A stretch of 64,000 nt of DNA from Ardenticatenaceae bacterium (GCA_027054335.1 JALUPA010000539.1:904-64903), one strand, 5' to 3'; shown: positions 3,490 to 36,394, numbered from the stretch's first letter. Numbers and translations: made by a program. The notes: generated from the letters alone by a model not told the origin.

Positions 3490-4449
3490 CTAAACCAGCA
3501 GGGATTGAGCCACCGTACCAGCGTATATAGCCAGCAGTAGAACCGTCAAGTAGTAATTGGAAGCCATAAACAGGGCGCGGGCGTGTGAGGCGGATGGGTC
3601 ACGGATAAGCTGCACGTTGCGCCAGAAAAGCATAAAGGAAACCAGCAGCACAGGCGCAAAATAAATCCAGCCCAACGCGGGCAGGGCAACCATCAGTACG
3701 CCAAAAATACAGGTGGGCAGCGTATGGGCCATGACCCACCAGGCAGCGCGATGGGGTGTCGTGTTAACCGGCAGCATAGGTACATCCGAGCGAGAATAAT
3801 CGTCTCGGTACAGCAGAGCCAGGCTCCAGAAATGAAAGGGCGTCCAGAGGAAGAGAATGAGGGCCAGGATGAGGGCGCCGGTTTCATTCCATTGGCCTAT
3901 GGCCGCACTGCCGGTAAGGACAGCCGCGCTGCCGGCCGCACCGCCAATGACGATGTTGAGCAAGGTGCGCGGCTTGAGCCAGATGGTGTAGATGATGGTG
4001 TAGATAAATGCGCCCAGAAGCAGGAAGAAGGCCATCGCCGGGTTAAAAGGGAGGACAACCAGGACGGGAATGAAGATGAGCAGGACGCTGACCACCGGTA
4101 CCCATTTGGGGTTTTTGATGTCGCCGTTGACTAACGGCCGTTTCCGGGTGCGGCGCATGGCTCCATCCGAATGACGCTCCCAATACTGATTGAAGGACGA
4201 CGAACCGGCTGCCGCCATCCCGCCGGTCAGCCAGAGGAGAAGCAGTGTGCCCAAGCCCGGCCAGCCGCCAGCCGCCAGAAATGCGCCGCCGGTGGCGGCC
4301 AACAAGAGCAAAAAAACTACGCGCAATTTGAACAGGACGACAATAAGATTCATGGTTTCCTGCCATTTGCTGCCAGTTCGGGTAGAAACTGCGTCCAGTT
4401 TGCCGGACGTTTCACTTTCCTGCACTTCAGTTGTATTGGTTAAGGACAT
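3490..4449 (-). CDS. ctaB: protoheme IX farnesyltransferase (heme O synthase)
   Basis: UbiA-family polytopic membrane protein with the heme O synthase motif NQYWERHSDGAMRRTRKRPL. Start moved to ATG at 4449, which is preceded by GGAGGAA. Confidence 0.85.
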   Translation of the reverse strand: MSLTNTTEVQESETSGKLDAVSTRTGSKWQETMNLIVVLFKLRVVFLLLLAATGGAFLAAGGWPGLGTLLLLWLTGGMAAAGSSSFNQYWERHSDGAMRRTRKRPLVNGDIKNPKWVPVVSVLLIFIPVLVVLPFNPAMAFFLLLGAFIYTIIYTIWLKPRTLLNIVIGGAAGSAAVLTGSAAIGQWNETGALILALILFLWTPFHFWSLALLYRDDYSRSDVPMLPVNTTPHRAAWWVMAHTLPTCIFGVLMVALPALGWIYFAPVLLVSFMLFWRNVQLIRDPSASHARALFMASNYYLTVLLLAIYAGTVAQSLLV

Positions 4450-5234: not shown

Positions 5235-5275
5235 AGGGCAAGGGGGCAAGGCGGCAGTACTTTGCCACTCTGCCC

Positions 5276-10003: not shown

Positions 10004-10070
10004 TCTTTGCTCGCGATTTGCCTTCGTGGAAAAAGGCAGCCGGGCCATATGACATTTTTTTTGAACAGTC

Positions 10071-10098
10071 GGCCCACCATTGGTGGGCTTTTGTTTTG
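10071..10098 (+). terminator. intrinsic terminator (riboswitch expression platform)
   Basis: GGCCCACCA-TT-GGTGGGC followed by TTTTGTTTTG, located between the aptamer and the binding-protein start. Confidence 0.65.
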
Positions 10099-10167
10099 TC
10101 TGCGTTCGTCTCCTTTCCGCCACGGGAGCTTTTTATCATCCAGTATGTTAGGAAGGAGAATTCAGTG

Positions 10168-11511
10168 ATGAAACGTTTAACCATTTTTCTTGTTTTGTTT
10201 GTCGCCATGTTTTTATTAGCTGGTTGTGTGGCGGATGTGCAGCCAACGGCCGTACCGCCTACCGCAGAACCCACCGCAGAACCAACGGCCGTACCCCCCA
10301 CAGAAGAACCCACCGAGGCGCCGGAACCCACTGTAGAGCCTACGGCCGTGCCCACAGAAGAACCTACCCCCACTATCGAGCCAACTGCCGCACCGGAAAC
10401 CCTCAGCGAAAACCTGACCGATAGCTGTGTCGCAGAATACGACGAAAATGTAGACTACTTCCCCCAGAAAGCCACCGTAAAATACGCCAGTGGCTACACC
10501 ATCGAATATTTCAACAACTACAAAGTTCTCACCATTCCCCTGCCCTGGCAAGGGGCCGAAGAGAGTGTACAGTACGTCCTGGTGCAGTGCGGCACGCCGC
10601 CGCCGGAGGATTTTGCCGCCGCGACAATCATCGAGGTGCCGGTGCAGAGTTTTGTTTCCATGTCCACGACCTATCTGCCCTATTTGGACCAATACGGGCT
10701 GATTGACCGGCTGGTGGGCGTAGACAACGCCTCCTTCATCAGCAATGAGGCAGTGCGGGCCAAATATGACGCGGGGGAACTGACTGAAATCGGCAGCGGC
10801 GGTGACGTGAACGTGGAAGCAGCTATTGACCTCGATCCCGACCTGATTATGACCAGCGCCAGCGGCTTTGCCGACTTTGATGCCCACCCCAAATTGGAAG
10901 AAGTCGGGCTGACCGTCGCCCTCAACGCTGATTATCTGGACACGACTCCGTTGGGGCAGGCCGAATGGGGTAAATATCTGGCTGCCTTCTTTAATAAGGA
11001 GGGAGAAGCTGAAGAACAGTTTGCCGACGTGGTGGCGCAGTATGAAGAATTGACTGCTTTGACGGCCGATGCGGTAGAACGTCCTACTGTCTTTAATAAC
11101 ACGCCCTTCGACGGAACCTGGTACATGCCCGGTGGCAACAGCTACGTCGCCCAACTGTTGGCCGACGCCGGCGCTGCTTATCTCTGGGCTGACGATGAAT
11201 CCACCGGTAGCCTTTTCCTGGACTTTGAGACCGTCTTTGACCGGGCAGCCGACGCCGATTACTGGATCAATATCGGCTTCTTCGCTACGTTAGACGATTT
11301 GGCAGCGGCGGATGAACGGTTTACCGAGTTTGCGGCCTATCAAAACGGTAACGTATTCAACAATGACGCCCGCGTCAATGAATTTGGCGGCAACGACTAC
11401 TACGAAAGCGGTGCGGCCAATCCCCACCTGGTTCTGGCCGACCTGATTAGTATTTTTCATCCCGACCTGCTGCCGGAGCATGAGTTTGTCTATTACCGGC
11501 AAGTCGAATAA
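10168..11511 (+). CDS. ABC transporter substrate-binding lipoprotein (cobalamin/siderophore PBP family, BtuF-like)
   Basis: Start ATG 10168 after GGAAGGAGAA. Lipobox FLLAGC, a long PT/E-rich tether, then a periplasmic-binding-protein type 8 domain. The riboswitch lies upstream, and the permease and ATPase lie downstream. Confidence 0.8.
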   Translation: MKRLTIFLVLFVAMFLLAGCVADVQPTAVPPTAEPTAEPTAVPPTEEPTEAPEPTVEPTAVPTEEPTPTIEPTAAPETLSENLTDSCVAEYDENVDYFPQKATVKYASGYTIEYFNNYKVLTIPLPWQGAEESVQYVLVQCGTPPPEDFAAATIIEVPVQSFVSMSTTYLPYLDQYGLIDRLVGVDNASFISNEAVRAKYDAGELTEIGSGGDVNVEAAIDLDPDLIMTSASGFADFDAHPKLEEVGLTVALNADYLDTTPLGQAEWGKYLAAFFNKEGEAEEQFADVVAQYEELTALTADAVERPTVFNNTPFDGTWYMPGGNSYVAQLLADAGAAYLWADDESTGSLFLDFETVFDRAADADYWINIGFFATLDDLAAADERFTEFAAYQNGNVFNNDARVNEFGGNDYYESGAANPHLVLADLISIFHPDLLPEHEFVYYRQVE

Positions 11512-20848: not shown

Positions 20849-22933
20849 ATGAAAAAACGTAATTGGTTAATCGTCTTACTTGTTGTGCTGGGATTATTGT
20901 TAGCTGCTTGTGGTGGTTCCGGCAGTACGCCGGAGCCGGCCGAACCGACCGCAGCGCCGCCTACAGCAGAACCAACAGAAGCGCCGGCTGAACCCAAACC
21001 CGAACCCACAGAAGCTCCGGCGGAAAGCGTTCCGGCCGAAGGAGATGCGTCCGGTATCGAGCCGATCCGTATCGCTATTGTCATGCCCAGCACCATCACC
21101 GACCTGGCCTGGAGCCAGGCCATCTACGATGCGCTGGCCCGCATTCAGGCAGATGCTGGCGGCGAAGACGTGGTGGAGATCGCCTACACGGAAAATATGT
21201 TCAACGTGACCGATGCGGCTGCGGCTATTCGCGATTATGCGGCTGACGGCTACGACATCGTCATTGCCCACGGCACACAGTATGGTACGTCTCTTTTTGA
21301 GATTGCCCCCGATTTCCCCGAAACCAGCTTTGCCTGGGGCACGGCCACCGATACGGGTAAAGACGCCGGTTTAGACAACATCTTTGCCTATGAAGCCCGC
21401 GCCGAACAGGGCGGCTACGTCGGCGGTGTATTGGCAGCCAATATGTCCGAATCCGGCGTGATTGGTGTAGTTGGTCCGGTGGAGGCCGGAGACGCCAAAT
21501 TGTACATTGATGGCTTTGTGGCCGGAGCCGAAGCAGCTAATCCGGACATAACAGTCAATGTCTCCTACACCGGTTCCTTTGGCGATACGGCGTTGGCGGC
21601 GGAAGCAGCCAATACCCACATTCAGGCCGGTGCGGACGTGTTGACCGGTTCTGCCCAGCAAGTAGTGGGGGCGATTGGCGTAGCTAAAGAGCAGGGTATC
21701 CCCTGGATTGGCACCCAGTCCGACCAAAGCTCACTGGCGCCGGATATTGTCGTGGCTTCTCAGCTTTATAGATGGGATGGCATTTTGCTGGACATTATCG
21801 AAAAACATCAGGCTGGCGAGTTGGGCGGCACAGCTTACGCTCTGACGCTGGATAATGGCGGTCTGGTAATGGACTATCGGGACAATGCCCCGGCGGACGC
21901 CGTAGCCGCGGCGCAGGAAGCGGAAGCCGGCATTATAGCGGGCAGCGTAGACGTGATTGCCGCTATGTCCGGTGAAGAAATGGCAGAAGGCGGTGAGGGG
22001 GAGATGCTGGATATTGAACCAATCCGCATTGCTATCGTCATGCCCAGCACCATCACCGACCTGGCCTGGAGCCAGGCTATCTACGATGCCCTGGTCAGCA
22101 TTCAGGAACAGGCTGGCGGCGAAGACGTGGTGGAGATCGCCTACACAGAAAATATGTTCAACGTGACGGACGCTGCAGCTGCTATCCGCGATTATGCGGC
22201 GGATGGCTATAACCTGGTCATTGCTCACGGCACGCAGTATGGCACGTCTCTCTTTGAGATTGCCCCCGATTTCCCGGAAACCAGCTTTGCCTGGGGCACG
22301 GCGACTGATACGGGTGAAGGTGAAGGGCTGGACAACATCTTTGCTTATGAAGCCCGCGCCGAAGAGGGCGGCTACGTAGGCGGCGTATTGGCAGCCAATA
22401 TGTCCGAGTCCGGCGTGATTGGCGTGGTTGGTCCGGTGGAGGCCGGAGACGCCAAATTGTACATTGATGGCTTTGTGGCCGGAGCCGAAGCAGCTAATCC
22501 GGACATAACTGTGAATGTCTCTTATACCGGCTCCTTTGGCGATACAGCCTTGGCCGCCGAAGCAGCCAATACCCACATTCAAGCGGGCGCGGACGTGTTG
22601 ACCGGTTCGGCGCAGCAGGTGGTCGGTGCGATTGGTGTAGCCAAAGAGGCCGGCGTTCCCTGGATTGGCACGCAGTCTGACCAGAGCGAATTGGCCCCGG
22701 ATATTGTGGTGGCTTCGCAGTTGTACGATTGGACTGCACCGCTGATTGATATGATTGTGAAACATCAGGCCGGTGAGTTGGGCGGTACGGCGTATGCCCT
22801 GACGCTGGAAAATGGCGGCCTGGTGATGGATTATCGGGATATTGCTCCGGCTGATGCTGTTGAGGCGGCGCAGGAAGCGGAAGCAGCCATTATCAGCGGC
22901 GATATTGATGTGACGAGTTTGTTGGGTGAGTAA
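20849..22933 (+). CDS. BMP-family ABC substrate-binding lipoprotein with two tandem, near-identical binding domains
   Basis: Lipobox LLAAC plus a PT/E tether, then two ~300-aa BMP (PnrA/Med-like) domains (IEPIRIAIVMPSTITDLAWSQAIYDAL...) offset by exactly 957 nt. Confidence 0.85.
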   Translation: MKKRNWLIVLLVVLGLLLAACGGSGSTPEPAEPTAAPPTAEPTEAPAEPKPEPTEAPAESVPAEGDASGIEPIRIAIVMPSTITDLAWSQAIYDALARIQADAGGEDVVEIAYTENMFNVTDAAAAIRDYAADGYDIVIAHGTQYGTSLFEIAPDFPETSFAWGTATDTGKDAGLDNIFAYEARAEQGGYVGGVLAANMSESGVIGVVGPVEAGDAKLYIDGFVAGAEAANPDITVNVSYTGSFGDTALAAEAANTHIQAGADVLTGSAQQVVGAIGVAKEQGIPWIGTQSDQSSLAPDIVVASQLYRWDGILLDIIEKHQAGELGGTAYALTLDNGGLVMDYRDNAPADAVAAAQEAEAGIIAGSVDVIAAMSGEEMAEGGEGEMLDIEPIRIAIVMPSTITDLAWSQAIYDALVSIQEQAGGEDVVEIAYTENMFNVTDAAAAIRDYAADGYNLVIAHGTQYGTSLFEIAPDFPETSFAWGTATDTGEGEGLDNIFAYEARAEEGGYVGGVLAANMSESGVIGVVGPVEAGDAKLYIDGFVAGAEAANPDITVNVSYTGSFGDTALAAEAANTHIQAGADVLTGSAQQVVGAIGVAKEAGVPWIGTQSDQSELAPDIVVASQLYDWTAPLIDMIVKHQAGELGGTAYALTLENGGLVMDYRDIAPADAVEAAQEAEAAIISGDIDVTSLLGE

Positions 22934-22991: not shown

Positions 22992-24578
22992 ATGACTATG
23001 GACAAAAATAACCTCCTCCCCTCTGGCCTGCCGCGCATCGAGTCTATGCAGATGCGTGATATTGTGAAGCGTTTTCCCGGTGTTCTGGCTAATGATCACG
23101 TTGATTTTGACGTGAATGCGGGCGAGATTCACGCGCTGCTGGGGGAGAATGGCGCGGGTAAAAGTACGCTGATGAAGGTACTGTATGGCCTGTACCAGCC
23201 GGAGGAGGGGGAGATTTTGCTTAATGGTAAGGTGGCAGACATTCATTCGCCTACGGACGCCATTGAACAGGGGATTGGCATGATTCACCAGCATTTTATG
23301 TTGGTGGATAACTTGAGTGTGGCCCAAAATGTGGCTCTGGGCTTGAAATCAGACAAGGGGCCGGTGCTGGACTTGGCGGTGGTGACAGCCCGGATTCGGG
23401 AATTGGCAGACAAGTATGGCTTGTACGTGGACCCGGACATTATTATCAATCGCCTGTCTGTGGGGGAGCGGCAGCGGGTGGAGATTATCAAGGCGTTGTA
23501 CCGGGGGGCGGCATTGTTGATTCTGGATGAGCCTACGGCCGTACTCACACCCCAGGAAGTAGACGAAATTTTCAAGATTTTTCGCAACATGGCCGTGGAA
23601 GGACACGCTCTTATCTTTATCTCACACAAGCTGGATGAAATTTTTGCCCTGACGGACCGGGTGACGGTGCTGCGTGACGGCCGTGTCGTCGGTGACGTGT
23701 TGACGGCGGACGTGACCAAAAATGAACTGGCTAACATGATGGTGGGCCGGGAAGTGTCGCTGGAACGGCAACGGCCGCCGGTGGCGCCGGGCGAGGTGCG
23801 GTTGAAGCTGGAAAATGTGAGCGCGGTCAATGACCGGGGGCAGCCGGTTTTGCGAAATATCAGCTTTGCCGTGCGCAGCGGCGAGATTTTGGGCGTGGCC
23901 GGCGTCTCCGGGAACGGGCAACGGCCGTTAGCCGAAGCGATTGCCGGTTTGCAACCGGTCAGCGAGGGGCGAATTGAGATGGACGGCCGTGACGTGACCA
24001 ACCTGTCCCCCTCGGAGATGTTCAAGATCGGCCTTTCCTACATCCCGGAAGAGCGAATGCACGACGGCGTCATTAAAAACTTTAACGTGGCGGAAAATCT
24101 GGTGCTGCAAGACCATCAGTTCCCGCCGTACAGCAAGGGTATTTTCCTGAATTTCAAGGAGATTGACCGGCACGCGGACGAGATGATTCGGGAATTTGAC
24201 ATCAAGACGCCGGGAAAGGAAACGGCCGTCAAAAATCTGTCCGGCGGCAATATCCAGAAGCTGATCCTGGCCCGCGAGCTGGACCGCCAGCCCCGCTTTC
24301 TCATCGCCGCCCAGCCGACGCGCGGCGTAGATATTGGGGCGACGGAGTACATCCACGCCCAACTGCTCAAGCAGCGCTCCGAAGGGCTGGCTACGCTGCT
24401 CATTTCGGAAGACCTGGATGAGGTGATGGCCATGTCTGACCGCATTATGGTGCTGTTTGGCGGGGAAATTATGGGCATTGTGGACAGTGACCAGGTGACG
24501 GTGGAGCAGTTGGGTTTGATGATGGCCGGGGAAAAGGCTGAGGAAGTGTTTAGCCAGAAGGAAACTCCTGTAACTTGA
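22992..24578 (+). CDS. ABC transporter ATP-binding protein, duplicated NBD (nucleoside/sugar type)
   Basis: First NBD: Walker A GENGAGKST, LSVGERQ and LILDEP. Second NBD: LSGGNIQK. Typical fused double-ATPase of BMP/CUT2 systems. Confidence 0.85.
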   Translation: MTMDKNNLLPSGLPRIESMQMRDIVKRFPGVLANDHVDFDVNAGEIHALLGENGAGKSTLMKVLYGLYQPEEGEILLNGKVADIHSPTDAIEQGIGMIHQHFMLVDNLSVAQNVALGLKSDKGPVLDLAVVTARIRELADKYGLYVDPDIIINRLSVGERQRVEIIKALYRGAALLILDEPTAVLTPQEVDEIFKIFRNMAVEGHALIFISHKLDEIFALTDRVTVLRDGRVVGDVLTADVTKNELANMMVGREVSLERQRPPVAPGEVRLKLENVSAVNDRGQPVLRNISFAVRSGEILGVAGVSGNGQRPLAEAIAGLQPVSEGRIEMDGRDVTNLSPSEMFKIGLSYIPEERMHDGVIKNFNVAENLVLQDHQFPPYSKGIFLNFKEIDRHADEMIREFDIKTPGKETAVKNLSGGNIQKLILARELDRQPRFLIAAQPTRGVDIGATEYIHAQLLKQRSEGLATLLISEDLDEVMAMSDRIMVLFGGEIMGIVDSDQVTVEQLGLMMAGEKAEEVFSQKETPVT

Positions 24579-24579
24579 T

Positions 24580-24930
24580 ATGAGTTTTTTTAAGAAATTA
24601 TTTGCCAGTGTCCCCACTATTTCTGTGATGGAAGCGCAAGAGAAGATGAAGGAAAAACCGAAGCCGGTGCTGCTGGATGTGCGCACTGTGTCGGAGTACC
24701 GGGAAGGGCATATTCCGGGGGCTGATTTGATACCGCTGCATGAACTGGACGGCCGTATCCGGAAACTGCCCAAGAACCGGGAAATCATCTGTATTTGTCG
24801 CTCCGGGAACCGCAGTAAAGGGGCCACTAAACAACTGTTGGCGGCGGGGTATACGGCCGTAAACATGAAAGGTGGGATGCGGGCCTGGAACAAAGCTGGA
24901 TACAAGGTCAAAAAGGGCAAAGTCAAGTAA
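24580..24930 (+). CDS. rhodanese-like sulfurtransferase domain protein
   Basis: 116 aa with the active-site loop CRSGNRS, LLDVRTVSEYREGHIPGA and GGMRAW. Confidence 0.8.
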   Translation: MSFFKKLFASVPTISVMEAQEKMKEKPKPVLLDVRTVSEYREGHIPGADLIPLHELDGRIRKLPKNREIICICRSGNRSKGATKQLLAAGYTAVNMKGGMRAWNKAGYKVKKGKVK

Positions 24931-24944
24931 AGCGGCGCAAAAAA

Positions 24945-24977
24945 GGCCGTATCCCCGAAGAGCGAAAGGATACGGCC
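24945..24977 (+). terminator. hairpin after the ABC/rhodanese operon
   Basis: GGCCGTATCC-(13 nt)-GGATACGGCC, built from two half-copies of the extended ACGGCCGTATC palindrome. There is no strong T-run. Confidence 0.4.
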
Positions 24978-25165
24978 GTTATGCCTGTCTGCAATCTCCT
25001 GCATTAGACCGTGGCCGGTTGCTGGAGTGGGTCTTGCCGGGAGGAAGATTGGCTTACAGTAGCGCCAGGCACGGGGTATCAAGCTTCTAAATGACCAAGA
25101 CCGTTAACTGCGGGCAAAAAGACAGCATCAACAAAAAATCCGGCCACCCTCGGACTTTTAAGCTG

Positions 25166-25194
25166 TTGCAATTTCAGATTTTCTACGTCATAAT
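25166..25194 (+). promoter_or_regulatory. candidate promoter of the DGR target gene
   Basis: TTGCAA, a 17-nt spacer, then CATAAT, about 60 nt upstream of ATG 25257. Confidence 0.35.
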
Positions 25195-25256
25195 GTAATT
25201 ATCATTCAGCCTGTCGCCGCGTTCGACAGCATAGCGAACACCATATAAAGGTAACT

Positions 25257-28145
25257 ATGCCCGCCTTACCGCCCCAACTGTACAATGAACTGGTAGACCT
25301 GTGTGTACCTTGCTTTACCCGCCCGGAAGAGCGCAAACCCCGGCTCAATCCCATCCTCAGCAGTTGGCCCGGCCGTAACCGCCTCAACTGGCGTAGTAAT
25401 CCGCGCACTTTTACTAAACAACTTCTCTATCGCCTGCCCCCGGAACATATTCAGTCGGTTGTGTACCAATTGCTGGCAGACCAATTAGAGGCAGCCCAAA
25501 TAGAGGGATTGTGCAGTTTGATTAACAGCGTCCTTGATCAAACAACGGCTGCTGCCAATGCTGGCCCTTTTGAACTGTATCACCTGGAAATTGCCTCGGA
25601 ACAGGAAGATGTTTACCAGATAGACGAACAGTTTATCCGCCTCACTTTATTACTAGATCAAGGGGAGGAAACGCAGGGCATACGTTTTGTGCCCGATAGT
25701 AAGAAGAAGGATAAATACGACAGTCTGGCTGCCCTTCTGGACGATATTGACGAGCGGGCTATCGTCCTTTTGGGCAAACCGGGCAGCGGCAAAACCACCC
25801 TGCTGCGCCGCCGCCAATGGGAACACGCCTGGGCCGAACTGGAGACCCCCAACGACCAGGTTTCATTTTTTGTTCCCCTCAACAGTTACCGCAGCCCCGG
25901 CCCCGGCCAGCCGCTCCTCGATCCTTACGATTGGCTGGCGGAAGAATGGCATATCCAATATCCTGATCTACTCGATTTTCGCACGCTTTACCAGTCCGGC
26001 CGGATGCTCCTTCTCCTGGACGGGTTAAATGAAATGCCCCACCGGGACAAGGAAGATTACCGGCAGCGCATTGGCCGGTGGCAGACGTTTTGGCAGCGCA
26101 CCCGGCGCTACGGTAATACCCTGATCTTTAGCTGCCGCAGCCTGGATTACAGCGCCAGCCTCAGCGGTACGGCCGCCCCGGTGCGCCAGGTGCGGGTGGA
26201 ACCCCTCACTGAAGAACAGATAGCCCAATTCCTCAGCCGTTATTTGCCGGAGCAAGGTACGGCCGTCTGGGAAGAACTGCGCCGCGACCCACGCCAGGTA
26301 GAATTGTTCAGCACCCCTTTTTTCCTGCGTCTGCTGGTGGGGCACGTTACTGCTAATAACGGCCGTCTCCCGGCCGGGCAGGCAGACCTGCTCACCGGTT
26401 TTGTCCGCCGCGCCTTGCAGCGGGAACTGGTGGAACACCGCCAGCAGCTTTTCACCGCCGGCCTCCTGCTAACCCAAAACGACCGCGATCAGATTATTCA
26501 AAACTGGTGGGACGAGGATGATCCTTGTGACCTGCCTGACAGCGGCCCCCTGCTGCCTCAACTGGAACATCTGGCCTACCAGATGCAGGCCGGCCGGAAA
26601 AGCGAAGAAAGCGGCCAGGTGCGCCTGCCAGAACAAAAAGCATTGGCTTACCTGCAGCCGCCGGAAATGGCTCCAGACATACTTGCGGCCGGTTGTCAAT
26701 TGAACATCCTGGACAAAGACCCGCCCAAGAAGGAAATCACCTATTTCCACCAGTTGATTCAGGAATATTTTGCCGGCCGCATTCTGGCCCGGCAGCCGGA
26801 ACCGGATCGGCTGACCGTGGCCTGGCGCAGCGCTGAAGTCACTCCCTCGCTGGCCGAAGAACTGGCCCGGCTGGAAGTGAGTGACCCTCTGCCGCCGCTG
26901 CCGGCCGGCGGTTGGGAAGAAAGCGCTCTGCTGGCGGCGGCAATGAACAGGGATCAGGAACAATTTGTTACCAACCTGGCCCAGACCAACTTGCCTTTGG
27001 CGGGCCGCTGTGCCGCCCTGCCGGAAGTGGCTGTCTCCCCGGCGCTGGAGGCGCGCCTGCGGGCTGAACTGGCCGCCCGTATGGCTGACCCCCAGGCCGA
27101 CCTGCGCGCCCGCATTGCCGCCGGTGAAGCATTGGGGCCGCTGGGCCACCCCGATTTTGAGCGGCGGGAGGGGCCGTACGGCCCGTACCTGCGGCCGCCG
27201 CTGACCCCCATCCTGGCCGGAACCTACCCTATAGGTGACGATGACGGCCAGTACGAGGATGAAAAACCGGCGCATACTGTAGAAATTGCCGCTTTGGAGA
27301 TGGCCGTGTACCCCCTGACCAACGCCGAGTACGCTCTATTTATGGCGGCCGGCGGCTACGAAGAGGAGCGTTGGTGGCAGACGGAAGCAGCCCGCGCCTG
27401 GCGGCGCGGCGCAGGCAGCAATGAAGGGCAAAAAGCATATTGGCGCGATGTACATGCGCAGTTGAAAGACATGACTGATGAAGCCATACAAAATTTGTCC
27501 AATATGACGCCGGAACAAGTTGAAGGATTCTTGCAAATCAAACATTTTTCTGCGGAAGAGATGGAAAAACAGGTTGAAAAATGGTATCCCACCGGCAAAG
27601 TTCATACACAGCCGGAATATTGGGATGACGGCCGTTTCAACCAACCCTTGCAGCCGGTGGTGGGCATTACCTGGCATGAAGCGCGGGCCTATTGCGCCTG
27701 GCTTTCAGGGCAAACGGGGGAAACATACGATCTGCCCACGGAAGCGGAATGGGAAGCAACGGCGCGGGGCAAAGCGGGCCGCACCTACTCGTGGGGTAAA
27801 AAGTATGACGCCGCCCGCTGTAACACCTTTGAAACCCACATCCGCCATACCACCCCGATAGGTGTTTTCCCCGACGGCCGTACCCCGGAAAAGGTGGCAG
27901 ATATGAGCGGTAACGTGTGGGAATGGACGTCTACCATTTATAAACCCTATCCTTACGCTGTGGACGACGGCCGTGAAGACCCATCAGACCCCGATTCCAG
28001 GCGCGTCTTGCGCGGCGGCTCGTGGGACGACGATCAGCACTACGCCCGCGCCGCTTATCGCTTCCACGGCAATCCAGGCAACCGTTACGGCAATGTCGGT
28101 GTCCGGGTGTGTCGGCGTGCCGTTCCCCATCTCAACGCCCTCTGA
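25257..28145 (+). CDS. DGR variable protein: NACHT/STAND P-loop NTPase with C-terminal FGE-sulfatase (C-type lectin fold) domain
   Basis: Walker A LLGKPGSGKTTLL and Walker B LLLLDGLNEM, with NACHT-like downstream helices. The C-terminal FGE/SUMF1 domain includes YPLTNAEYALFM, VVGITWHEARAYCAWL, GNVWEWT and LRGGSW. The VR occupies the last ~48 codons. Confidence 0.9.
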   Translation: MPALPPQLYNELVDLCVPCFTRPEERKPRLNPILSSWPGRNRLNWRSNPRTFTKQLLYRLPPEHIQSVVYQLLADQLEAAQIEGLCSLINSVLDQTTAAANAGPFELYHLEIASEQEDVYQIDEQFIRLTLLLDQGEETQGIRFVPDSKKKDKYDSLAALLDDIDERAIVLLGKPGSGKTTLLRRRQWEHAWAELETPNDQVSFFVPLNSYRSPGPGQPLLDPYDWLAEEWHIQYPDLLDFRTLYQSGRMLLLLDGLNEMPHRDKEDYRQRIGRWQTFWQRTRRYGNTLIFSCRSLDYSASLSGTAAPVRQVRVEPLTEEQIAQFLSRYLPEQGTAVWEELRRDPRQVELFSTPFFLRLLVGHVTANNGRLPAGQADLLTGFVRRALQRELVEHRQQLFTAGLLLTQNDRDQIIQNWWDEDDPCDLPDSGPLLPQLEHLAYQMQAGRKSEESGQVRLPEQKALAYLQPPEMAPDILAAGCQLNILDKDPPKKEITYFHQLIQEYFAGRILARQPEPDRLTVAWRSAEVTPSLAEELARLEVSDPLPPLPAGGWEESALLAAAMNRDQEQFVTNLAQTNLPLAGRCAALPEVAVSPALEARLRAELAARMADPQADLRARIAAGEALGPLGHPDFERREGPYGPYLRPPLTPILAGTYPIGDDDGQYEDEKPAHTVEIAALEMAVYPLTNAEYALFMAAGGYEEERWWQTEAARAWRRGAGSNEGQKAYWRDVHAQLKDMTDEAIQNLSNMTPEQVEGFLQIKHFSAEEMEKQVEKWYPTGKVHTQPEYWDDGRFNQPLQPVVGITWHEARAYCAWLSGQTGETYDLPTEAEWEATARGKAGRTYSWGKKYDAARCNTFETHIRHTTPIGVFPDGRTPEKVADMSGNVWEWTSTIYKPYPYAVDDGREDPSDPDSRRVLRGGSWDDDQHYARAAYRFHGNPGNRYGNVGVRVCRRAVPHLNAL
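27998..28126 (+). repeat. DGR variable repeat (VR)
   Basis: 129-nt match to 28290-28418 with 12 mismatches, all opposite TR adenines. Weaker homology (IMH-like) extends to about 28139. Confidence 0.9.
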
Positions 28146-28289
28146 TCTCTGGTTGGCGGGCGTAGCGGTAGCGTAGTCCCGCCCCCGCGCGTTAGCGCGG
28201 TCGCTGCAAATTTTCAAATTTTGTACTCTCCTGATTTTCAGTTAAACTTGACTCAGGTACGCATCATAGTACCTGGGGCAACCTGGCAA

Positions 28290-28418
28290 CAGGCGCGTCT
28301 TGCGCGGCGGCTCGTGGAACAACAATCAGCACTACGCCCGCGCCGCTTATCGCAACAACAACAATCCAGACAACCGTAACAACAATGTCGGTGTCCGGGT
28401 GTGTCGGCGTGCCGTTCC
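28290..28418 (+). repeat. DGR template repeat (TR)
   Basis: Non-coding copy of the VR in which the variable codons are AAC/AAT (read as [25 protein letters not shown]). Located 145 nt downstream of the target stop. Confidence 0.9.
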
Positions 28419-28731
28419 ACACCTCAATGCGTTTCCTTTTTCCTGGGGTTTCCGAACTCTCCGGCCTCTCGTCAGGTCGTGTGCTGGATTGGAACCGGGC
28501 GGCTGCCCCACCATAGGCAGACTGCTTCCAGTTTATGCCCGCCGGTTACGGCTTGCGGGATGCGGCGCGGGAAGAGTTGAGATGGCGCAGGTTGGTCCCG
28601 TCTGTACGTAGCTGCGGCGGTATGGAGCGCCGCCGGCGTCAGGCGCATATTCAAACCCGGGCGCGGCCTGGATTCGCTCCCGCCGCGCCCGCTCCATTTA
28701 GCCCCGTGCCTGGCGCTTCTGTCAATTTACT

Positions 28732-29079
28732 CTACAGATGAGCCGTTTGCTTAATCCAGCCGCCCAATAAGCGGCCAATCTCGGCCACCATGCGGCTGAC
28801 GTGTTCAAACTGTCCTACAGACAACCAGCGCCACTGGAACGCCAGGCGCAAATACAGCCGCACCTTGTCCAGGCAGGCGTCTGCCCTTTTCAAATGGCGC
28901 AGCCGTACCTTGTCCTCGTACACTTGCGCCTCCAGAATCGCTTCCTGAAAATCCAGCGTTGCTGCCATCAATCTTTGGGTAACTGTGCTGCGATACAGCT
29001 TAGGAAAACCTTCTGATTTGGGTAAAAGCCAATCCAACAAATCAAATGTGCGCGTAAAAATGATCATTTCTGATGACAT
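28732..29079 (-). CDS. avd: DGR accessory variability determinant (Avd, four-helix-bundle protein)
   Basis: 115 aa. The C-terminal [11 protein letters not shown] parallels Bordetella bAvd EVGRILGSWI, and the helix-bundle heptad pattern is present. GAGGAA lies 5 nt upstream of ATG 29079. The gene is on the opposite strand to TR and RT. Confidence 0.8.
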
Positions 29080-30157
29080 CCTGTTTCCTCATATCACAAA
29101 CTGGGAAAATTTGCTAAAAGCGTATTACAAAGCAGCCCGCGGCAAACGAGGGCGTCAGGCTGCCGCCGCCTTTGAATACAAGCTGGCAGACAACCTTCTC
29201 ATTTTACAAGATGAACTGCGTCAGGGCCGCTATAAACCCGGCGCGTACTGTCACTTCGTCATCCGTGAACCGAAACGCCGCCTGATCAGCGCCGCCCCCT
29301 TCCGGGACAGGGTCGTTCATCATGCCTTGTGCCACGTCATCGAACCGCTCTTTGAAACACGTTTTCACCCCCACAGTTACGCCAACCGGGCAGGAAAGGG
29401 CACACACCGGGCAATTGATCAATTACAAGCATTTGCCCGCCATTACCGCTATGTGCTGCGCCTGGATATTGTGCAGCATTTCCCTTCTTTGGATCACGCT
29501 CTCCTTATGCAGGAACTGTTCCGTGTCATCCGAGATGAACAGGTACGCGGGTTAGTAGACGCCATTTTGCAAAGCGGCGCCGGTGTGTTGGCTGACGAGT
29601 ACCACATGGTATATTTTCCGGGCGACGATCTATTTGCCATTAACCGGCCACGGGGTCTGCCCATCGGCAACCTGACCAGCCAGTTTTGGAGCAACTGTTA
29701 TCTGAATCCGCTGGACTGGTTTGTGACGCGGCAGTTAAGCTGCCCGGCTTTCCTGCGCTATGTGGACGATTTCGCCCTGTTTTCTTCTAATAAACAGCAG
29801 CTCTGGCAGTGGCGGGAACAAATCATCACTTTCCTGGCCGGCCTGCGCCTCACCATTCATGAAAGCAGCGCCCAGGTCATGCCGGTCAATAGTGGCATTC
29901 CCTGGTTGGGTTTTATTGTCTATCCCACATACCGTAAGCTAAAACGGCGCAATATCGTGCAGTTTCAGCGGCGATTGGTACACAATATAACTCTGTACCG
30001 CCGGGGCGACATCTCTTTTGCCGAGTTAGACGCCAGCGTTCAGGGTTGGATTAATCATGTGCGTTATGGGAATACCTGGGGGCTGCGGGAACACATTTTC
30101 CAGCAGCCTGGGAATGCAGTTCCCAGGTTGCTACTGCGGGCAGAAAGGCCATATTAA
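29060..30157 (+). CDS. DGR reverse transcriptase
   Basis: Aligns with Bordetella Brt from the N-terminus ([19 protein letters not shown] versus ITTWENLLDAYRKTSHGKR). It has the DGR-specific motif LPIGNLTSQ and the catalytic YVDD. Start set at ATG 29060. Confidence 0.9.
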
Positions 30158-30198
30158 CTAATCTGCTGAGCATCCCGCCCCAACCACGGATGATGATC

Positions 30199-30351
30199 GT
30201 AGGGGCGGGACGGCGCGGTGCGGTCTTGGGCAAACAAAACGATGTTGTTCCGCGCCGTCTCGCCCGGTGGCGGCCGTGTGTGGGGCGAGACAGGCGGGAG
30301 AGAAGGTGTTGGTGAATGGTAAAGGTGTTTTCCCGCCTGTCCCGCCCCTAC
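30199..30351 (+). repeat. 153-bp GTAG...CTAC structured element (REPIN-like), copy 1
   Basis: Termini are GTAGGGGCGGGAC / GTCCCGCCCCTAC. Three nested internal hairpins (GGACGGCGCGG/CCGCGCCGTC, GTCTCGCCC/GGGCGAGAC, CAGGCGGGA/TCCCGCCTG). Near-identical copy at 30918-31071. Confidence 0.9.
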
Positions 30352-30378
30352 TGTGAATTGTGTATGGTGGATAATCGA

Positions 30379-30921
30379 ATGAATAAATATGATCCGAATA
30401 AACATCGGCATTCCATTCGACTGCGCGGGTGGGATTACCGGTCGCCCGGCCTGTATTTTGTGACAATTTGTACCCATGAACGACAAAACCTGTTTGATAA
30501 CCTGGATTTCCGAGACATTGCGATTTATGCTTTAGGCCGCATTCCCCAACAAAAACATGCCCGGCATGTGCTGGTAGACGAATCGGTGGTGATGCCTAAC
30601 CATGCCCATGCTATTTTGGCGTTTACTGGTTATCCGGAGCAGGCGGATATGACTCGCACCCGCGGAAATTTTGAGAATGCGTTGGCAGGATCATTGGGTG
30701 TGGTTGTGGGGCGGTATAAAACGGCCGTAACTACCCGTATCAACAAATTACGACACAGCAAAGGGGCAAAGGTGTGGCAGCGCGGTTATTATGAACGTAT
30801 CATTCGCAATGAACGAGAATTGCAGGCCACGCAACAATATATTATCAACAATCCGGCACGTTGGGCCGAAGATCGGGATAACCTGGGTATTCTCCTCGCC
30901 AAAATGACATACCATCCGTAG
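30379..30921 (+). CDS. REP-associated tyrosine transposase (RAYT, IS200/IS605 Y1 family)
   Basis: HUH motif (VMPNHAHAIL) and catalytic-Tyr helix (WQRGYYERIIRNERELQATQQYIINNPARW). Start at ATG 30379, because the listed 30316 start lies inside the flanking repeat. The stop TAG is part of the GTAG of the downstream element. Confidence 0.85.
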   Translation: MNKYDPNKHRHSIRLRGWDYRSPGLYFVTICTHERQNLFDNLDFRDIAIYALGRIPQQKHARHVLVDESVVMPNHAHAILAFTGYPEQADMTRTRGNFENALAGSLGVVVGRYKTAVTTRINKLRHSKGAKVWQRGYYERIIRNERELQATQQYIINNPARWAEDRDNLGILLAKMTYHP

Positions 30922-31071
30922 GGGCGGGACGGCGCGGTGCGGTCTTGGCGGAAACAAAACGATGTTGTTCCGCGCCGTCTCGCCCGGTGGCGGCCGTGTG
31001 TGGGGCGAGACAGGCGGGAGAGAAGGTGCTGGTGAATGGTAAAGGTGTTTTCCCGCCTGTCCCGCCCCTAC
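30918..31071 (+). repeat. 154-bp GTAG...CTAC structured element (REPIN-like), copy 2
   Basis: Direct repeat of 30199-30351. By visual alignment the two copies differ by only a 1-nt indel and a few substitutions. Confidence 0.9.
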
Positions 31072-31236
31072 GACAATGGGGGCAAATGGGCAAACCAAAG
31101 TTGACTTCCCTGGCTTCTTTTGCTACGATCTTCGGCATGAAGACACATTTGGTTATTCAAGCCGCAGCCGCCGCCCGGACAAATCGTCTGGCGTGTGGGC
31201 TTGTCTGACTGTTTCCAGCATAAACACAGCATTTAG

Positions 31237-31270
31237 CCGCCAGATTGAGTACCCAGTCTGGCGGTTTTTT
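31237..31270 (+). terminator. intrinsic terminator
   Basis: CCGCCAGA-(12 nt)-TCTGGCGG followed by TTTTTTG. Lies downstream of the RAYT unit and upstream of alaS. Confidence 0.6.
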
Positions 31271-31344
31271 GTTGCTGGGGTACAATTTCAGGATCAAGGT
31301 GACAGGCAGTTGAGAAGTGCCTGTCACCTAAAAATGGAGTGATA

Positions 31345-34035
<2,691 letters not shown>

Positions 34036-34167: not shown

Positions 34168-34830
34168 ATGAATACGGCCGTGAAAACCAAAAAAACGTCA
34201 GTAACATTTCCTTTTAAGCTACCGGCAATTCCCCCGTTGGAACCGGGTGAGCGTCTCAGCCGCAATGAATTTGAACGCCGCTATGCGGCCATCCCCCATC
34301 TAAAAAAAGCGGAACTTGTTGAGGGAGTTGTGTATGTACTGCCTCCTGTTCGTTTTCTGAGTCACGGCCGGCCGCACGCCCAGGTTGTTTGCTGGCTGGG
34401 TGTTTATTGCGCGGGTCGTGATGGCGTTTCTGCTGGCAGTAATGCCACTGTGCGTCTGGATGCTGACAATGAGGTGCAGCCGGATGCGCTCTTGCGCTGG
34501 GACGAGAGCAAAGGCGGCCGTTCCCGCATTACGGATGACGATTACCTGGAAGGTCCGCCGGAACTGATTGTGGAAATTGCGGCCAGCAGCGCATCTTACG
34601 ATTTGTATGAAAAGAAGACGGTGTACCGGCGCAACGGGGTGCAGGAGTACGTGGTTTGGCAGATTTACGACGGCCGTCTCGATTGGTTCTGGCTGGACGA
34701 AGGGGTCTACAAAACGTTAGCCCCCGACGAAAACGGCATTATCGCCAGCCGCGTCTTCCCCGGTTTGCGTCTGGACGTTTCCGCGCTGCTCCGCCATGAT
34801 ATGACGGCCGTGTTGCAAGCATTACAGTAA
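34168..34830 (+). CDS. Uma2-family (DUF820) restriction-endonuclease-fold protein
   Basis: Typical Uma2 layout: ...AELVEGVVYV..., QPDALL and PELIVEIAASSASYDLYEKKTVYRRNGVQEYVVW (PD-(D/E)xK-like core). Confidence 0.7.
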   Translation: MNTAVKTKKTSVTFPFKLPAIPPLEPGERLSRNEFERRYAAIPHLKKAELVEGVVYVLPPVRFLSHGRPHAQVVCWLGVYCAGRDGVSAGSNATVRLDADNEVQPDALLRWDESKGGRSRITDDDYLEGPPELIVEIAASSASYDLYEKKTVYRRNGVQEYVVWQIYDGRLDWFWLDEGVYKTLAPDENGIIASRVFPGLRLDVSALLRHDMTAVLQALQ

Positions 34831-34843
34831 TGCGCATCACTCT

Positions 34844-36394
34844 ATGCAAATAATTCCCCTCCAGGCAGAAGACGACATCGTATCTATTGGCGACCGGTTG
34901 GACTGGGCGCACGATGCGCAGGTGATTTTTGTCCTGCCGGAGGATGGCGGCGTCTTGCGGGAAGGGCTGGATTTGGTGCGCCTGCGCCGCTATGCGGATG
35001 AGATGCGGGTAGACGTGGGGCTGGTGACGCCGGATGCGGACATCTCCCGGCAGGCGCGGGCGGTAGGCCTCCCTGTTTTCCCCACCATCGGCCTGGCGCG
35101 GAAAAACCGGCGTGGCTGGTGGCGGGGTCGTAAACGCTCGGAACTGGTGGGATTGCCCTCGAACGGGGATGACCGGTTTGCCGATTTCCGCCGCCTGCCC
35201 CGGATGAGCGCGCCAGACAAGGAGGAAGCGCATCGCCGTCTCTCGCCACCCACAACGCAGCGGCAGTGGGTGCTGCGTTACGGGGCTATCCTCCTCTTTT
35301 TTGTGGTCATTGCCTTGATGTACGTCGCTTTTATCTACAGCGTGCCGGGGGCGACGGTGACGCTGAAACCGGAGAGCCTCCCCCTGCGCGTTGAGCAGTC
35401 CATTCTGGCCGATCCGGTGATTGAGGACGTGGATTACCAGCGGCATCTGGTTCCGGCGCGTATTCTGACAATGACGAGCGAGTGGCAAGCGGAGGTGGAA
35501 CCGACTGGCAGTATTGAAGTGGCGGAAGCGCCGGCGCGCGGGATGGTGGTCTTTGTCAATCTGTTGGATCAACCGGTAACCATTCCGGCCGGGACGCGGG
35601 TCAGCACGTCAGACGGCCGTCAACTGGCCTACCGCACCCTGAACGAAGCCAGCTTGCCCGGTGTGGTCAACAGTACAGTGGAAGTGGAAATCATTGCCGA
35701 GGAGCCGGGGCCGCAGGGGAACGTAGCAGCCGGTCTCATCAACCAGGTAGAGGGATCACTGGCGGCGCAGGTGGAAGTGCGCAATCTGGAACCTATTGAA
35801 GGCGGCGGGACGCGCCCGGCCAAAGCGGTGACGGCCGAAGACCGGGAACGGCTGCGCGCCCAGGTGCTGCAATACCTGAAGGCGGCGGCTTTGGCGGAGA
35901 TGGCCGGGCAGGTGACGGAGCGGGAACTTTTGACGCCAAATTCCCTTCGCGTTGTCAATATCCTGGATGAGACGTATTCCCATGACGTGGGGGAGCAGGC
36001 GGACAGGTTATCCTTGTTTATGCGGGCGGAATGGGCGGGTACGGCCGTCAACACTACAGAAGCGTCGGGCATTGCGTATGAAGCGTTGACCCGGCTGGTG
36101 CCGCCTGACTTTGCCCTGGCGCCGGACAGCATTCGTTTTGAGAGCGGGGAGGTTACGGCCGTAGACGAAGCGGGCCGGGTCACGTTTTCCATGACGGCCG
36201 AAGGGTTAGCGGCGGCTGAGGTGAATCCTTCCGAGCAGATTGAGGCGATTACCGGGCAAATGCCGGATACGGCCGTGGCCTATCTCTACCAACGCCTCCC
36301 CCTGAGCGAACCGCCCCAAATTACCGTCTGGCCTACCTGGTTTGACCGCGTTCCCTACACGCCAGCCCGCATCCAGACAGAGATTGAGCCGTGA
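34844..36394 (+). CDS. hypothetical membrane protein with baseplate-J (gp47)-like central region
   Basis: One TM helix (VLRYGAILLFFVVIALMYVAFIY). The downstream region (GMVVFVNLLDQPVTIPAGTRVST...GPQGNVAAGLINQVEG) resembles baseplate J-like domains. The assignment is tentative. Confidence 0.4.
   Translation: MQIIPLQAEDDIVSIGDRLDWAHDAQVIFVLPEDGGVLREGLDLVRLRRYADEMRVDVGLVTPDADISRQARAVGLPVFPTIGLARKNRRGWWRGRKRSELVGLPSNGDDRFADFRRLPRMSAPDKEEAHRRLSPPTTQRQWVLRYGAILLFFVVIALMYVAFIYSVPGATVTLKPESLPLRVEQSILADPVIEDVDYQRHLVPARILTMTSEWQAEVEPTGSIEVAEAPARGMVVFVNLLDQPVTIPAGTRVSTSDGRQLAYRTLNEASLPGVVNSTVEVEIIAEEPGPQGNVAAGLINQVEGSLAAQVEVRNLEPIEGGGTRPAKAVTAEDRERLRAQVLQYLKAAALAEMAGQVTERELLTPNSLRVVNILDETYSHDVGEQADRLSLFMRAEWAGTAVNTTEASGIAYEALTRLVPPDFALAPDSIRFESGEVTAVDEAGRVTFSMTAEGLAAAEVNPSEQIEAITGQMPDTAVAYLYQRLPLSEPPQITVWPTWFDRVPYTPARIQTEIEP

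Follow-up and report, generated by a model that had tools for sequence, protein, structure and literature searches.

This report describes a diversity-generating retroelement (DGR) found in a 64,000-nucleotide stretch of DNA from an Ardenticatenaceae bacterium (GCA_027054335.1, JALUPA010000539.1:904-64903), hereafter the window; all coordinates refer to this whole 64-kb stretch, read 5' to 3' on one strand. The cassette comprises a target gene for a 962-residue protein that ends in a variable repeat (VR), the matching template repeat (TR), a spacer with a conserved structured RNA, an avd gene on the opposite strand, and a gene for a reverse transcriptase (RT). An earlier note on this DNA had placed all the parts of a DGR within 5 kb, and they do lie inside 25257-30157. 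As described in the following sections, this is a complete chromosomal DGR, recently active, which rewrites the last ~25 codons of a C-type-lectin (CLec)/FGE fold in a cytoplasmic protein that resembles the nucleotide-binding leucine-rich repeat receptors (NLRs).

Template and Variable Repeats

A repeat search of positions 24000-32000 found one long direct repeat, 27998-28138 against 28290-28430, whose 141-nt copies are 89% identical and offset by 292 nt. Compared base by base, the copies have 15 mismatches, and because 13 of these show an A in the downstream copy, that copy is taken as the TR (28290..28430, + strand) and the upstream one as the VR (27998..28138, + strand). All but one of the 13 adenine mismatches fall at codon position 1 or 2 of the 962-aa open reading frame (ORF), in the mutagenized part of the VR (28026-28092). 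The remaining one, at 28127, and the two mismatches that do not involve A, at 28130 and 28136, all lie in the last 12 nt, where they are preceded by a 32-nt A-free stretch (28095-28126). An A-free segment followed by three terminal differences looks like the usual arrangement of the initiation of mutagenic homology (IMH) and IMH*, and the segment is accordingly called IMH-like here. Seven nucleotides separate the end of the VR from the stop codon of the target, and the earlier description of a 129-nt TR/VR core (27998-28126) at the extreme 3' end of the 962-aa gene was correct.

The TR contains 33 adenines, 29 of them within its mutagenic part, and when read in the frame of the target it holds 11 Asn (AAY) codons, eight of which are altered in the VR; most of the 13 mismatched adenines belong to AAY codons. 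Altogether there are 18 adenine-containing codons, corresponding to about 10^16 possible proteins. A scan of the entire window with the TR, all adenines being wild-carded, found no second VR.

Natural Alleles and Activity

The TR/VR pattern with wild-carded adenines gave 0 matches in a metagenome contig collection, in which this population is not represented, and an exact look-up of the target protein in the contig index returned no record. Variants of the VR were found instead by exact-protein look-ups of AlaS and of the RT, and the evidence on alleles thus comes from assemblies, not from reads. The truncated AlaS led to contig JALTTD010000979.1 of GCA_027049765.1 (L084), which is 6.7 kb long and covers window positions 27136-33881. 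Some of its differences from the window are due to assembly: a scaffold gap of 10 N, a deletion of 10 nt beside this gap, and a noisy stretch over the final 60 nt. Otherwise it differs by 14 substitutions, all located within 28041-28092 of the VR and 13 of them at positions where the TR has an adenine, while the two TRs are identical and about 6.6 kb of flanks are free of substitutions. At nine of the 14 sites this second allele carries a base that is present in neither the VR nor the TR of the window, and for this reason it is not regarded as a VR/TR chimera.

The look-up of the RT protein added three contigs. The first, L086, comes from another sample and has the window allele, in a scaffold broken by 100 N (L086 1827-1926) starting exactly at 28041; the next, L088, from a third sample, is a contig in which VR and TR have collapsed and whose VR part is the second allele; and L089, identical to the window, covers 28389-30227 only, i.e., the 3' end of the TR, the spacer, avd, and the RT gene. 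The second allele is consequently seen in two assemblies, L084 and L088, and the TR has the same sequence with both alleles. Variation of the VR at adenine sites within the population, which the earlier note had suggested looking for, is borne out by independent assemblies that are polymorphic in this way at 13 of the 14 positions. Because the alleles differ only in the VR, at TR adenines in 13 of 14 cases, and because the TR and the flanks are identical, we conclude that the locus is active in nature. The three 5'-most changed codons (GAC GAC GAT) are common to both alleles, which diverge from each other only 3' of this point, a pattern that fits a later, partial replacement anchored at the IMH.

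A comparable distribution is found in a Promineifilum orthologue, 56% identical to the target, for which nine full-length versions from separate assemblies are available: these have at most four differing sites outside the last 40 residues and up to 14 within them, concentrated at the positions of the TR Asn codons.

The public assemblies are damaged exactly at the features of the DGR. L086 has its N gap inside the VR, with the start of the VR duplicated, and the gene caller missed the target gene there and called antisense ORFs; in L088 (864-1001) VR and TR are merged into one hybrid copy with the loss of 292 nt; and the 10-N gap of L084 falls near window positions 28191-28210, at the GC-rich hairpin discussed later.

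Architecture of the Target Protein

The target gene (25257..28145, + strand) has a tripartite layout, with an N-terminal domain assigned to effector-associated domain 8 (EAD8; residues 1 to about 101), a NACHT NTPase domain (residues 167-332; 25755..26252, +), and, after a helical middle region, an FGE-sulfatase/C-type-lectin-fold domain (residues 652-952; 27210..28112, +), the predicted ligand-binding module that ends in the VR. The NACHT model PF05729 matches with E 4.9e-15 and 56 bits, against a cutoff of 26.7, and covers model positions 1-166 of 167; Walker A (GKPGSGKT, at 173) and Walker B (LLLLDGLNE, at 251) are both intact. The FGE-sulfatase model PF03781 matches residues 652-952 with E 2.5e-45. 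The P-loop NACHT NTPase and FGE/C-type-lectin C-terminus read earlier in this gene are thus both supported by Pfam matches above cutoff. The protein also looks cytoplasmic, with neither a transmembrane-like or hydrophobic segment nor a signal peptide.

There are 516 homologues of the target at E<=1e-3, mostly from Chloroflexota. They keep the same NACHT-FGE core, and in them the N-terminus is exchanged for TIR, a trypsin-like peptidase, a kinase, EAD7, or other domains. A 59%-identical NACHT-FGE homologue from Candidatus Leptofilum (L002 8001-16370) is accompanied by neither an RT nor an avd gene over 8 kb, and an nSTAND1-EAD7 protein is encoded 2.8 kb away from it; this homologue may be an orphan or a remote target.

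As for the FGE domain, its sequence matches in the PDB are to the FGE/EgtB/PvdO families, to OvsA, and to the DGR variable protein TvpA (2y3c). The enzyme equivalogs of NCBIfam score well under their cutoffs on the target: SenA reaches 123 against 420, EgtB 120 against 360, and OvoA 82 against 400, and PvdO is likewise at a third or less of its cutoff. These low scores, together with the TvpA match, indicate that the domain is a binding fold and not an FGE enzyme.

The N-terminal ~150 residues had matched nothing recognizable in the earlier note, and most of this region can now be placed. By BLAST, residues 1-109 constitute a module common to about 50 of 120 listed homologues, and of 41 aligned homologous N-termini, to which the window sequence is BLAST-significant (1e-5 to 1e-24), 30 match the EAD8 model PF19961, the best with E 2.3e-22. 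A word-indexed protein search with the 109-aa N-terminus returned nothing; a full HMMER profile search was used instead, in which the profile of this N-terminal family, run against 1.84 billion representative proteins, found 637 proteins. Among the 86 longer matches that were scanned, 62 are Pfam EAD8, and the domains that accompany EAD8 include FGE (13), TIR (12), NACHT (11), and nSTAND1 (6), along with TPR, HEAT, and NB-ARC. The AlphaFold2 model of the N-terminus is a six-helix bundle with a predicted local distance difference test score (pLDDT) of 81.5. Foldseek found nothing for this model in the PDB at E<=0.001, and a match to the death-domain fold of FADD, at E 4.6, is not regarded as evidence. 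By transitive and profile evidence only, residues 1 to about 100 (25257..25559, +) are classed as a divergent EAD8 adaptor domain, predicted to be a six-helix bundle. Related DGR loci encode the fusions EAD8-TIR-NACHT-FGE and EAD8-TIR-FGE.

Reverse Transcriptase and the Divergent avd Gene

The RT gene (29060..30157, + strand) codes for 365 residues from the ATG at 29060, within an ORF that is open from the GTG at 28985; it matches bRT and RVT_1. The best solved relative is the RT of the Bordetella phage, bRT (8ub7; E 1e-49), while group II intron RTs follow at 1e-19. Among the motifs of the IGxxxSQ and YxDD types, PIGNLTSQ aligns with PIGSLTSQ of bRT and YVDD with YMDD. On these alignments the enzyme is a Brt-like RT of the DGR clade, in agreement with what the earlier note had recognized from IGNLTSQ and YVDD. 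The avd gene (28732..29079, - strand) encodes 115 residues and is assigned by bAvd PF22296 (E 3e-16) and NF033474, where its 81.2 bits are just above the cutoff of 80. The earlier note had also called an Avd gene near the RT, TR, and VR but had left its orientation unsaid: it is divergent from the RT gene, their start regions overlapping by 20 nt, and the cassette is therefore not a simple co-linear operon.

Relatives of the RT number 231 in contigs of species-representative genomes, and the best 80 loci, with 60-84% identity, were kept for comparison. The hosts of these best 80 loci are Chloroflexota (Anaerolineae and relatives), Accumulibacter, Competibacteraceae, Acidobacteriota, and others. 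The divergent avd/RT layout, typically with a ~20-nt overlap of the start regions, is present in 77 of 81 related loci, and the orientation of avd is accordingly a trait of the clade. TR/VR pairs with adenine-specific mismatches were recovered in 41 related loci, and the TR takes either of two positions: on the RT strand between target and avd, as in the window, or, in other loci, on the avd strand directly after avd. A scan of 24900-30400 for sigma-70 promoters and terminators gave nothing beyond the shuffled expectation, and no promoter is called upstream of the TR.

Spacer RNA and Post-VR Hairpin

The interval between the TR and the stop codon of avd, which measures 200-370 nt in the related loci, is conserved across phyla. 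In the window this spacer (28431..28731, + strand) has, by alignment, RNAalifold, and a covariance model, a conserved structured RNA with a core at 28525-28696, made of three 9-bp helices with covariation and of a purine-rich segment whose sequence complements the 3' end of the TR; RNAalifold shows many compensatory changes in the helices. The covariance model, R1, was built on 23 sequences and matches 68 related loci with E values from 1e-43 to about 2e-21, always immediately 3' of the TR and on the TR strand, whichever of the two layouts the locus has. Over 71 matches, 95.8% of the cells are paired, double changes occur in 25 of 31 pairs, and the covariation score is 0.565, against 0.20 for shuffled and at most 0.12 for slid partners; these statistics lean towards structure because the alignment was fitted to the model, and even so the margin is large. 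Searches of Rfam, at gathering scores and at E<=10 over 28100-29100, yield no family for the element.

The purine-rich stretch in the window element is GAGATGGCG. Its pairing with the TR 3' end is an apparent complementarity only, as RNAduplex does not separate cognate pairs (mean -22.5 kcal/mol) from noncognate ones (-21.1 kcal/mol).

In phage BPP-1, the spacer RNA downstream of the TR (Sp) wraps bRT, binds Avd by a ~9-bp stem-loop, and primes cDNA synthesis, and similar spacer elements are predicted in 207 of 278 DGRs (Handa et al., bioRxiv 10.1101/2023.10.23.563531). Following this precedent, the R1 element is probably the counterpart of Sp, i.e., the spacer RNA of this clade. In one related Chloroflexia locus (L006), two TR copies (3786-3917 and 5248-5368) each have their own spacer RNA (4045-4217 and 5501-5672), with avd after the first copy and the RT gene after the second, which suggests a duplicated TR-spacer module.

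Downstream of the VR, 46 nt past the end of the homology, folding reveals a GC-rich hairpin, CCGCGC-GTTA-GCGCGG (28185..28200), a candidate DNA target-recognition element. A perfect GC-rich hairpin occurs 19-93 nt (mostly 43-93 nt) downstream of the VR for 42 of 52 VRs of related loci, and in the closest relatives it is found at +49 to +53 with changed stem sequences; the fold z-score of the post-VR hairpin is only -1.9. BPP-1 has a GC-rich target-recognition hairpin after its VR, and by analogy the hairpin at 28185-28200 may aid the targeting of cDNA to the VR.

Comparison with Known Systems

The architecture described above belongs to a published class. EADs and the principle by which they couple proteins were defined by Kaur et al. 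in 2020 (PMC7159879), and in 2021 Kaur, Burroughs, Iyer, and Aravind (PMC8195603) described STAND (NACHT or other)-FGS proteins with an N-terminal EAD1, EAD2, EAD7, EAD8, or effector. An RT and a four-helix accessory gene are often linked to these proteins, which they proposed to be hypermutating sensors of invaders. Doré et al. (2024; PMC10907252) then reported natural VR diversity in Thiohalocapsa, with EAD8-nSTAND1-FGE and NACHT-CLec targets, listed filamentous Chloroflexi and Accumulibacter among the hosts of such DGRs, and described a trypsin-like peptidase as an EAD8 effector. The remark in the earlier note that DGR-diversified STAND proteins had only recently been noticed therefore overstates the novelty, since EAD- or effector-NACHT-FGE proteins linked to DGRs appear in both PMC8195603 (2021) and PMC10907252 (2024), and the window is to be regarded as a new, clean, and active member of the class.

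The domain grammar of the Kaur systems and that of the window are exactly alike, including the RT and the four-helix accessory gene nearby; those two papers are purely comparative and predict a second EAD on an effector that is usually adjacent, unlike the situation in the window. With Thiohalocapsa PB-PSB1 (DGR 6, EAD8-nSTAND1-FGE, and DGR 3, NACHT-CLec; “clade 5D” in PMC10907252) the window shares a cellular DGR and a target with a central STAND NTPase and a single C-terminal CLec/FGE domain that carries the VR. The class of Doré et al. has in common with the window an N-terminal EAD8 adaptor or an unannotated extension, and VR diversity in natural populations, and the hosts listed there also occur among the relatives of the window RT. 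The differences are that here EAD8 is joined to NACHT and not to nSTAND1 as in DGR 6, that there is one target instead of two, and that no gene for an EAD8-peptidase or another effector adjoins it. Neither the divergent avd nor the spacer RNA of the window clade is a topic of PMC10907252, where the word “Avd” appears nowhere in the text.

Compared with the BPP-1 DGR (mtd-avd-TR-brt), the window has a Brt-like RT (E 1e-49), an Avd, adenine-specific transfer from TR to VR, the AAY codon design, an A-free IMH-like segment, a GC hairpin after the VR, and a structured RNA downstream of the TR. It departs from BPP-1 in its cellular host and in its target, which is cytoplasmic and not a tail fiber; moreover, avd is inverted, with its 5' end overlapping the RT gene, the TR lies between target and avd, and the spacer is about 300 nt. 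The bNACHT/Avs antiphage proteins offer another parallel, having an N-terminal output part, a central STAND/NACHT domain with intact Walker motifs, and a C-terminal sensor. In the window, however, a DGR-mutated lectin fold takes the place of TPR or other repeats as the sensor, and at the N-terminus there is an adaptor instead of an enzyme. The protein matches no PADLOC family, scores 43 bits with the EruA model against a cutoff of 1000, and is not known to have a defense phenotype.

New here are the assignment of the N-terminus to EAD8, the avd orientation shared by the clade, the covarying spacer RNA outside Rfam, and the second natural VR allele. The RT clade may, tentatively and at less than even probability, represent a distinct and uncatalogued DGR architecture, in which avd and the RT gene diverge with overlapping 5' ends, the TR RNA is antisense to avd or downstream of it, and a clade-specific ~170-nt spacer RNA with three covarying 9-bp helices is outside Rfam and not detectably related to BPP-1 Sp, to which is added natural, partial, IMH-anchored replacement of a VR in an NLR-like receptor. 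The evidence of activity, the well-defined spacer RNA, and a divergent avd/RT layout that is possibly not yet catalogued raise the interest of the locus somewhat; beliefs already held about the class are unchanged by it. Nothing else in bacteria comes as close to a hypermutating immune receptor as the DGR-diversified NLR-like proteins, and there is no experimental work on any of them. Being compact (4.9 kb, with one target and one TR), intact, and active in the wild, and having two recoverable VR alleles and a well-defined spacer RNA, the locus described here lends itself in practice to reconstitution and ligand hunting.

Proposed Mechanism and Alternative Explanations

If the system works like that of BPP-1, a + strand RNA containing the TR and the structured spacer (28431-28731) would bind the RT-Avd complex and prime its own reverse transcription near the 3' end of the TR. 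The adenines of the TR would be miscopied during cDNA synthesis, and the cDNA would then replace the VR, anchored at the A-free IMH and aided by the downstream GC hairpin. The subsequent steps are suggested by the domain grammar and the literature: the diversified CLec surface would bind an invader-derived or non-self ligand, ligand binding would release NACHT oligomerization, and the clustered EAD8 domains would recruit, through homotypic contacts, an EAD8-tagged effector encoded elsewhere, which in relatives is typically a TIR. The outcome may be abortive infection or growth arrest that protects clonal neighbors.

That an active DGR acts on the EAD8-NACHT-CLec protein we regard as very likely. 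Given such a DGR, the immune-sensor mechanism is the leading hypothesis, and we consider it slightly on the probable side. The earlier note had compared the protein to an NLR-type sensor with a somatically diversified recognition domain; this is a published hypothesis for the class, and its structural part, the DGR-diversified NACHT-FGE protein, is confirmed, while the ligand, the output, and the immune role are at present predictions.

A number of observations weigh against this picture. When searched by itself, the window protein matches PF19961 with E 0.13 and 13.4 bits, under the Pfam cutoff of 27. No EAD8-bearing partner and no recognizable effector were found within the 64-kb window, where tblastn with the N-terminus and a hidden Markov model (HMM) search of all ORFs returned only the target itself as a copy of EAD8, and for this reason the output arm is unseen. 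No PADLOC defense family is matched by the target, or by Avd, and the neighboring genes are housekeeping ones (ABC transporter, rhodanese, alaS, purH, rpoC) and do not form a defense island. Model R1 finds no match in phage BPP-1, so that Sp is not detected and the equivalence of the two RNAs rests on position and analogy. One of the allele differences, T>G at 28041, is not adenine-templated, the TR having a T there. Last, no CLec-STAND protein has been characterized experimentally (PMC10907252).

The site 28041 is the 5'-most of the differing sites and lies on the border of the apparently replaced segment; a rare misincorporation at a base other than adenine, an error at the junction, or an ordinary mutation could each account for the change.

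Among the rival explanations, two accept the DGR and give its target another task. The NACHT-CLec protein might serve kin recognition or allorecognition between filaments, in the manner of fungal het/NLR incompatibility, instead of antiviral sensing, an alternative that Doré et al. (PMC10907252) raised themselves. Its tripartite grammar is the same as that of the fungal NLR incompatibility determinants, and two VR alleles co-occurring in one population would suit a polymorphic recognition locus; yet a protein that looks cytoplasmic would see non-self only after cytoplasmic exchange, and nothing in the window suggests a system for cell-cell transfer, for which reasons we consider this explanation unlikely. 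The target might instead be a sensor in regulation or signal transduction, unconnected with any conflict system, which the DGR tunes to environmental or metabolic ligands as these change; this has been proposed for cyanobacterial DGR targets with signaling domains (PMC7517822). Such a role would agree with the housekeeping neighborhood and with the lack of an adjacent effector, but EAD8 occurs mainly alongside STAND NTPases, TIR, and FGE, as is typical of conflict systems, and close relatives fuse TIR directly to the same core; we judge it to be about as improbable as kin recognition.

The other two rivals dispute the activity of the DGR or the nature of its target domain. Were the locus a decaying relic, the differences between VR and TR would be ancient and the apparent alleles would be assembly artefacts of a two-copy repeat, which assemblies do mishandle, as the VR/TR collapse in L088, the N gap in the VR of L086, and the N gap at the hairpin of L084 attest. 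The ORFs of RT, avd, and target are nevertheless intact, the second allele is present in both L084 and L088 and, given its bases at nine of the 14 sites, is no VR/TR chimera, and roughly 6.6 kb of flanks have zero substitutions, so that this explanation is largely refuted and very improbable. Fainter still is the chance that the C-terminal domain, instead of being a module for binding, functions as a formylglycine-generating enzyme or sulfoxide synthase, as could be supposed from homologues annotated “SUMF1/EgtB/PvdO family nonheme iron enzyme” and from the sequence similarity to FGE, EgtB, and OvsA structures. All the equivalog models are far under their cutoffs, the domain also matches TvpA, and randomization strikes the conserved C-terminal core of the fold, something that a fixed active site would not allow. 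Kin recognition and regulatory sensing are the live alternatives to the leading hypothesis, the sensing of invaders by a diversified NLR-like protein.

Host and Genomic Neighborhood

The AlaS of the window is 91% identical to that of a Chloroflexota metagenome-assembled genome (GCA_012329075.1) and about 70% identical to those of Promineifilaceae, Candidatus Leptofilum, and Ardenticatenaceae, which are filamentous groups. In GCA_012329075.1 (L085 4778-7119), IS110-family transposase genes are located upstream of alaS and there is no DGR; because this closest relative found has IS110 at that place, the DGR cassette is not fixed at this position in the lineage.

The next gene beyond that of the DGR RT is an ORF (30316-30921) for a REP-associated tyrosine transposase (RAYT), which scores 75.5 bits with NF047646 (cutoff 80). 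This gene has a direct repeat of ~155 nt on either side; the two copies (30198-30351 and 30917-31071) are 98% identical, and since each has 13-nt inverted repeats at its ends, GTAGGGGCGGGAC / GTCCCGCCCCTAC, they look like REPINs. Because the annotated start of the ORF falls within the first copy, the true start is probably further in. The window holds no other copies of the repeat; a REP-like motif extending to the region near the VR was considered and rejected, as the match at 28176 has two mismatches and is within chance.

Elsewhere in the window, a cobalamin riboswitch (RF00174; 9855-10016, + strand; 52.6 bits, E 3e-10) precedes the ORF at 10018-11511, and a 694-aa lipoprotein-like ORF (20849-22933), upstream of the ABC transporter ATPase, shows in its translation an internal tandem duplication, its two halves of ~320 aa being nearly identical. 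At 34168-36394, flanked by alaS and a NUDIX gene, stands a pair that is odd for a stretch of housekeeping genes: a Uma2-family putative endonuclease (PF05685) and, after it, a 516-aa protein with a Baseplate_J-like domain.

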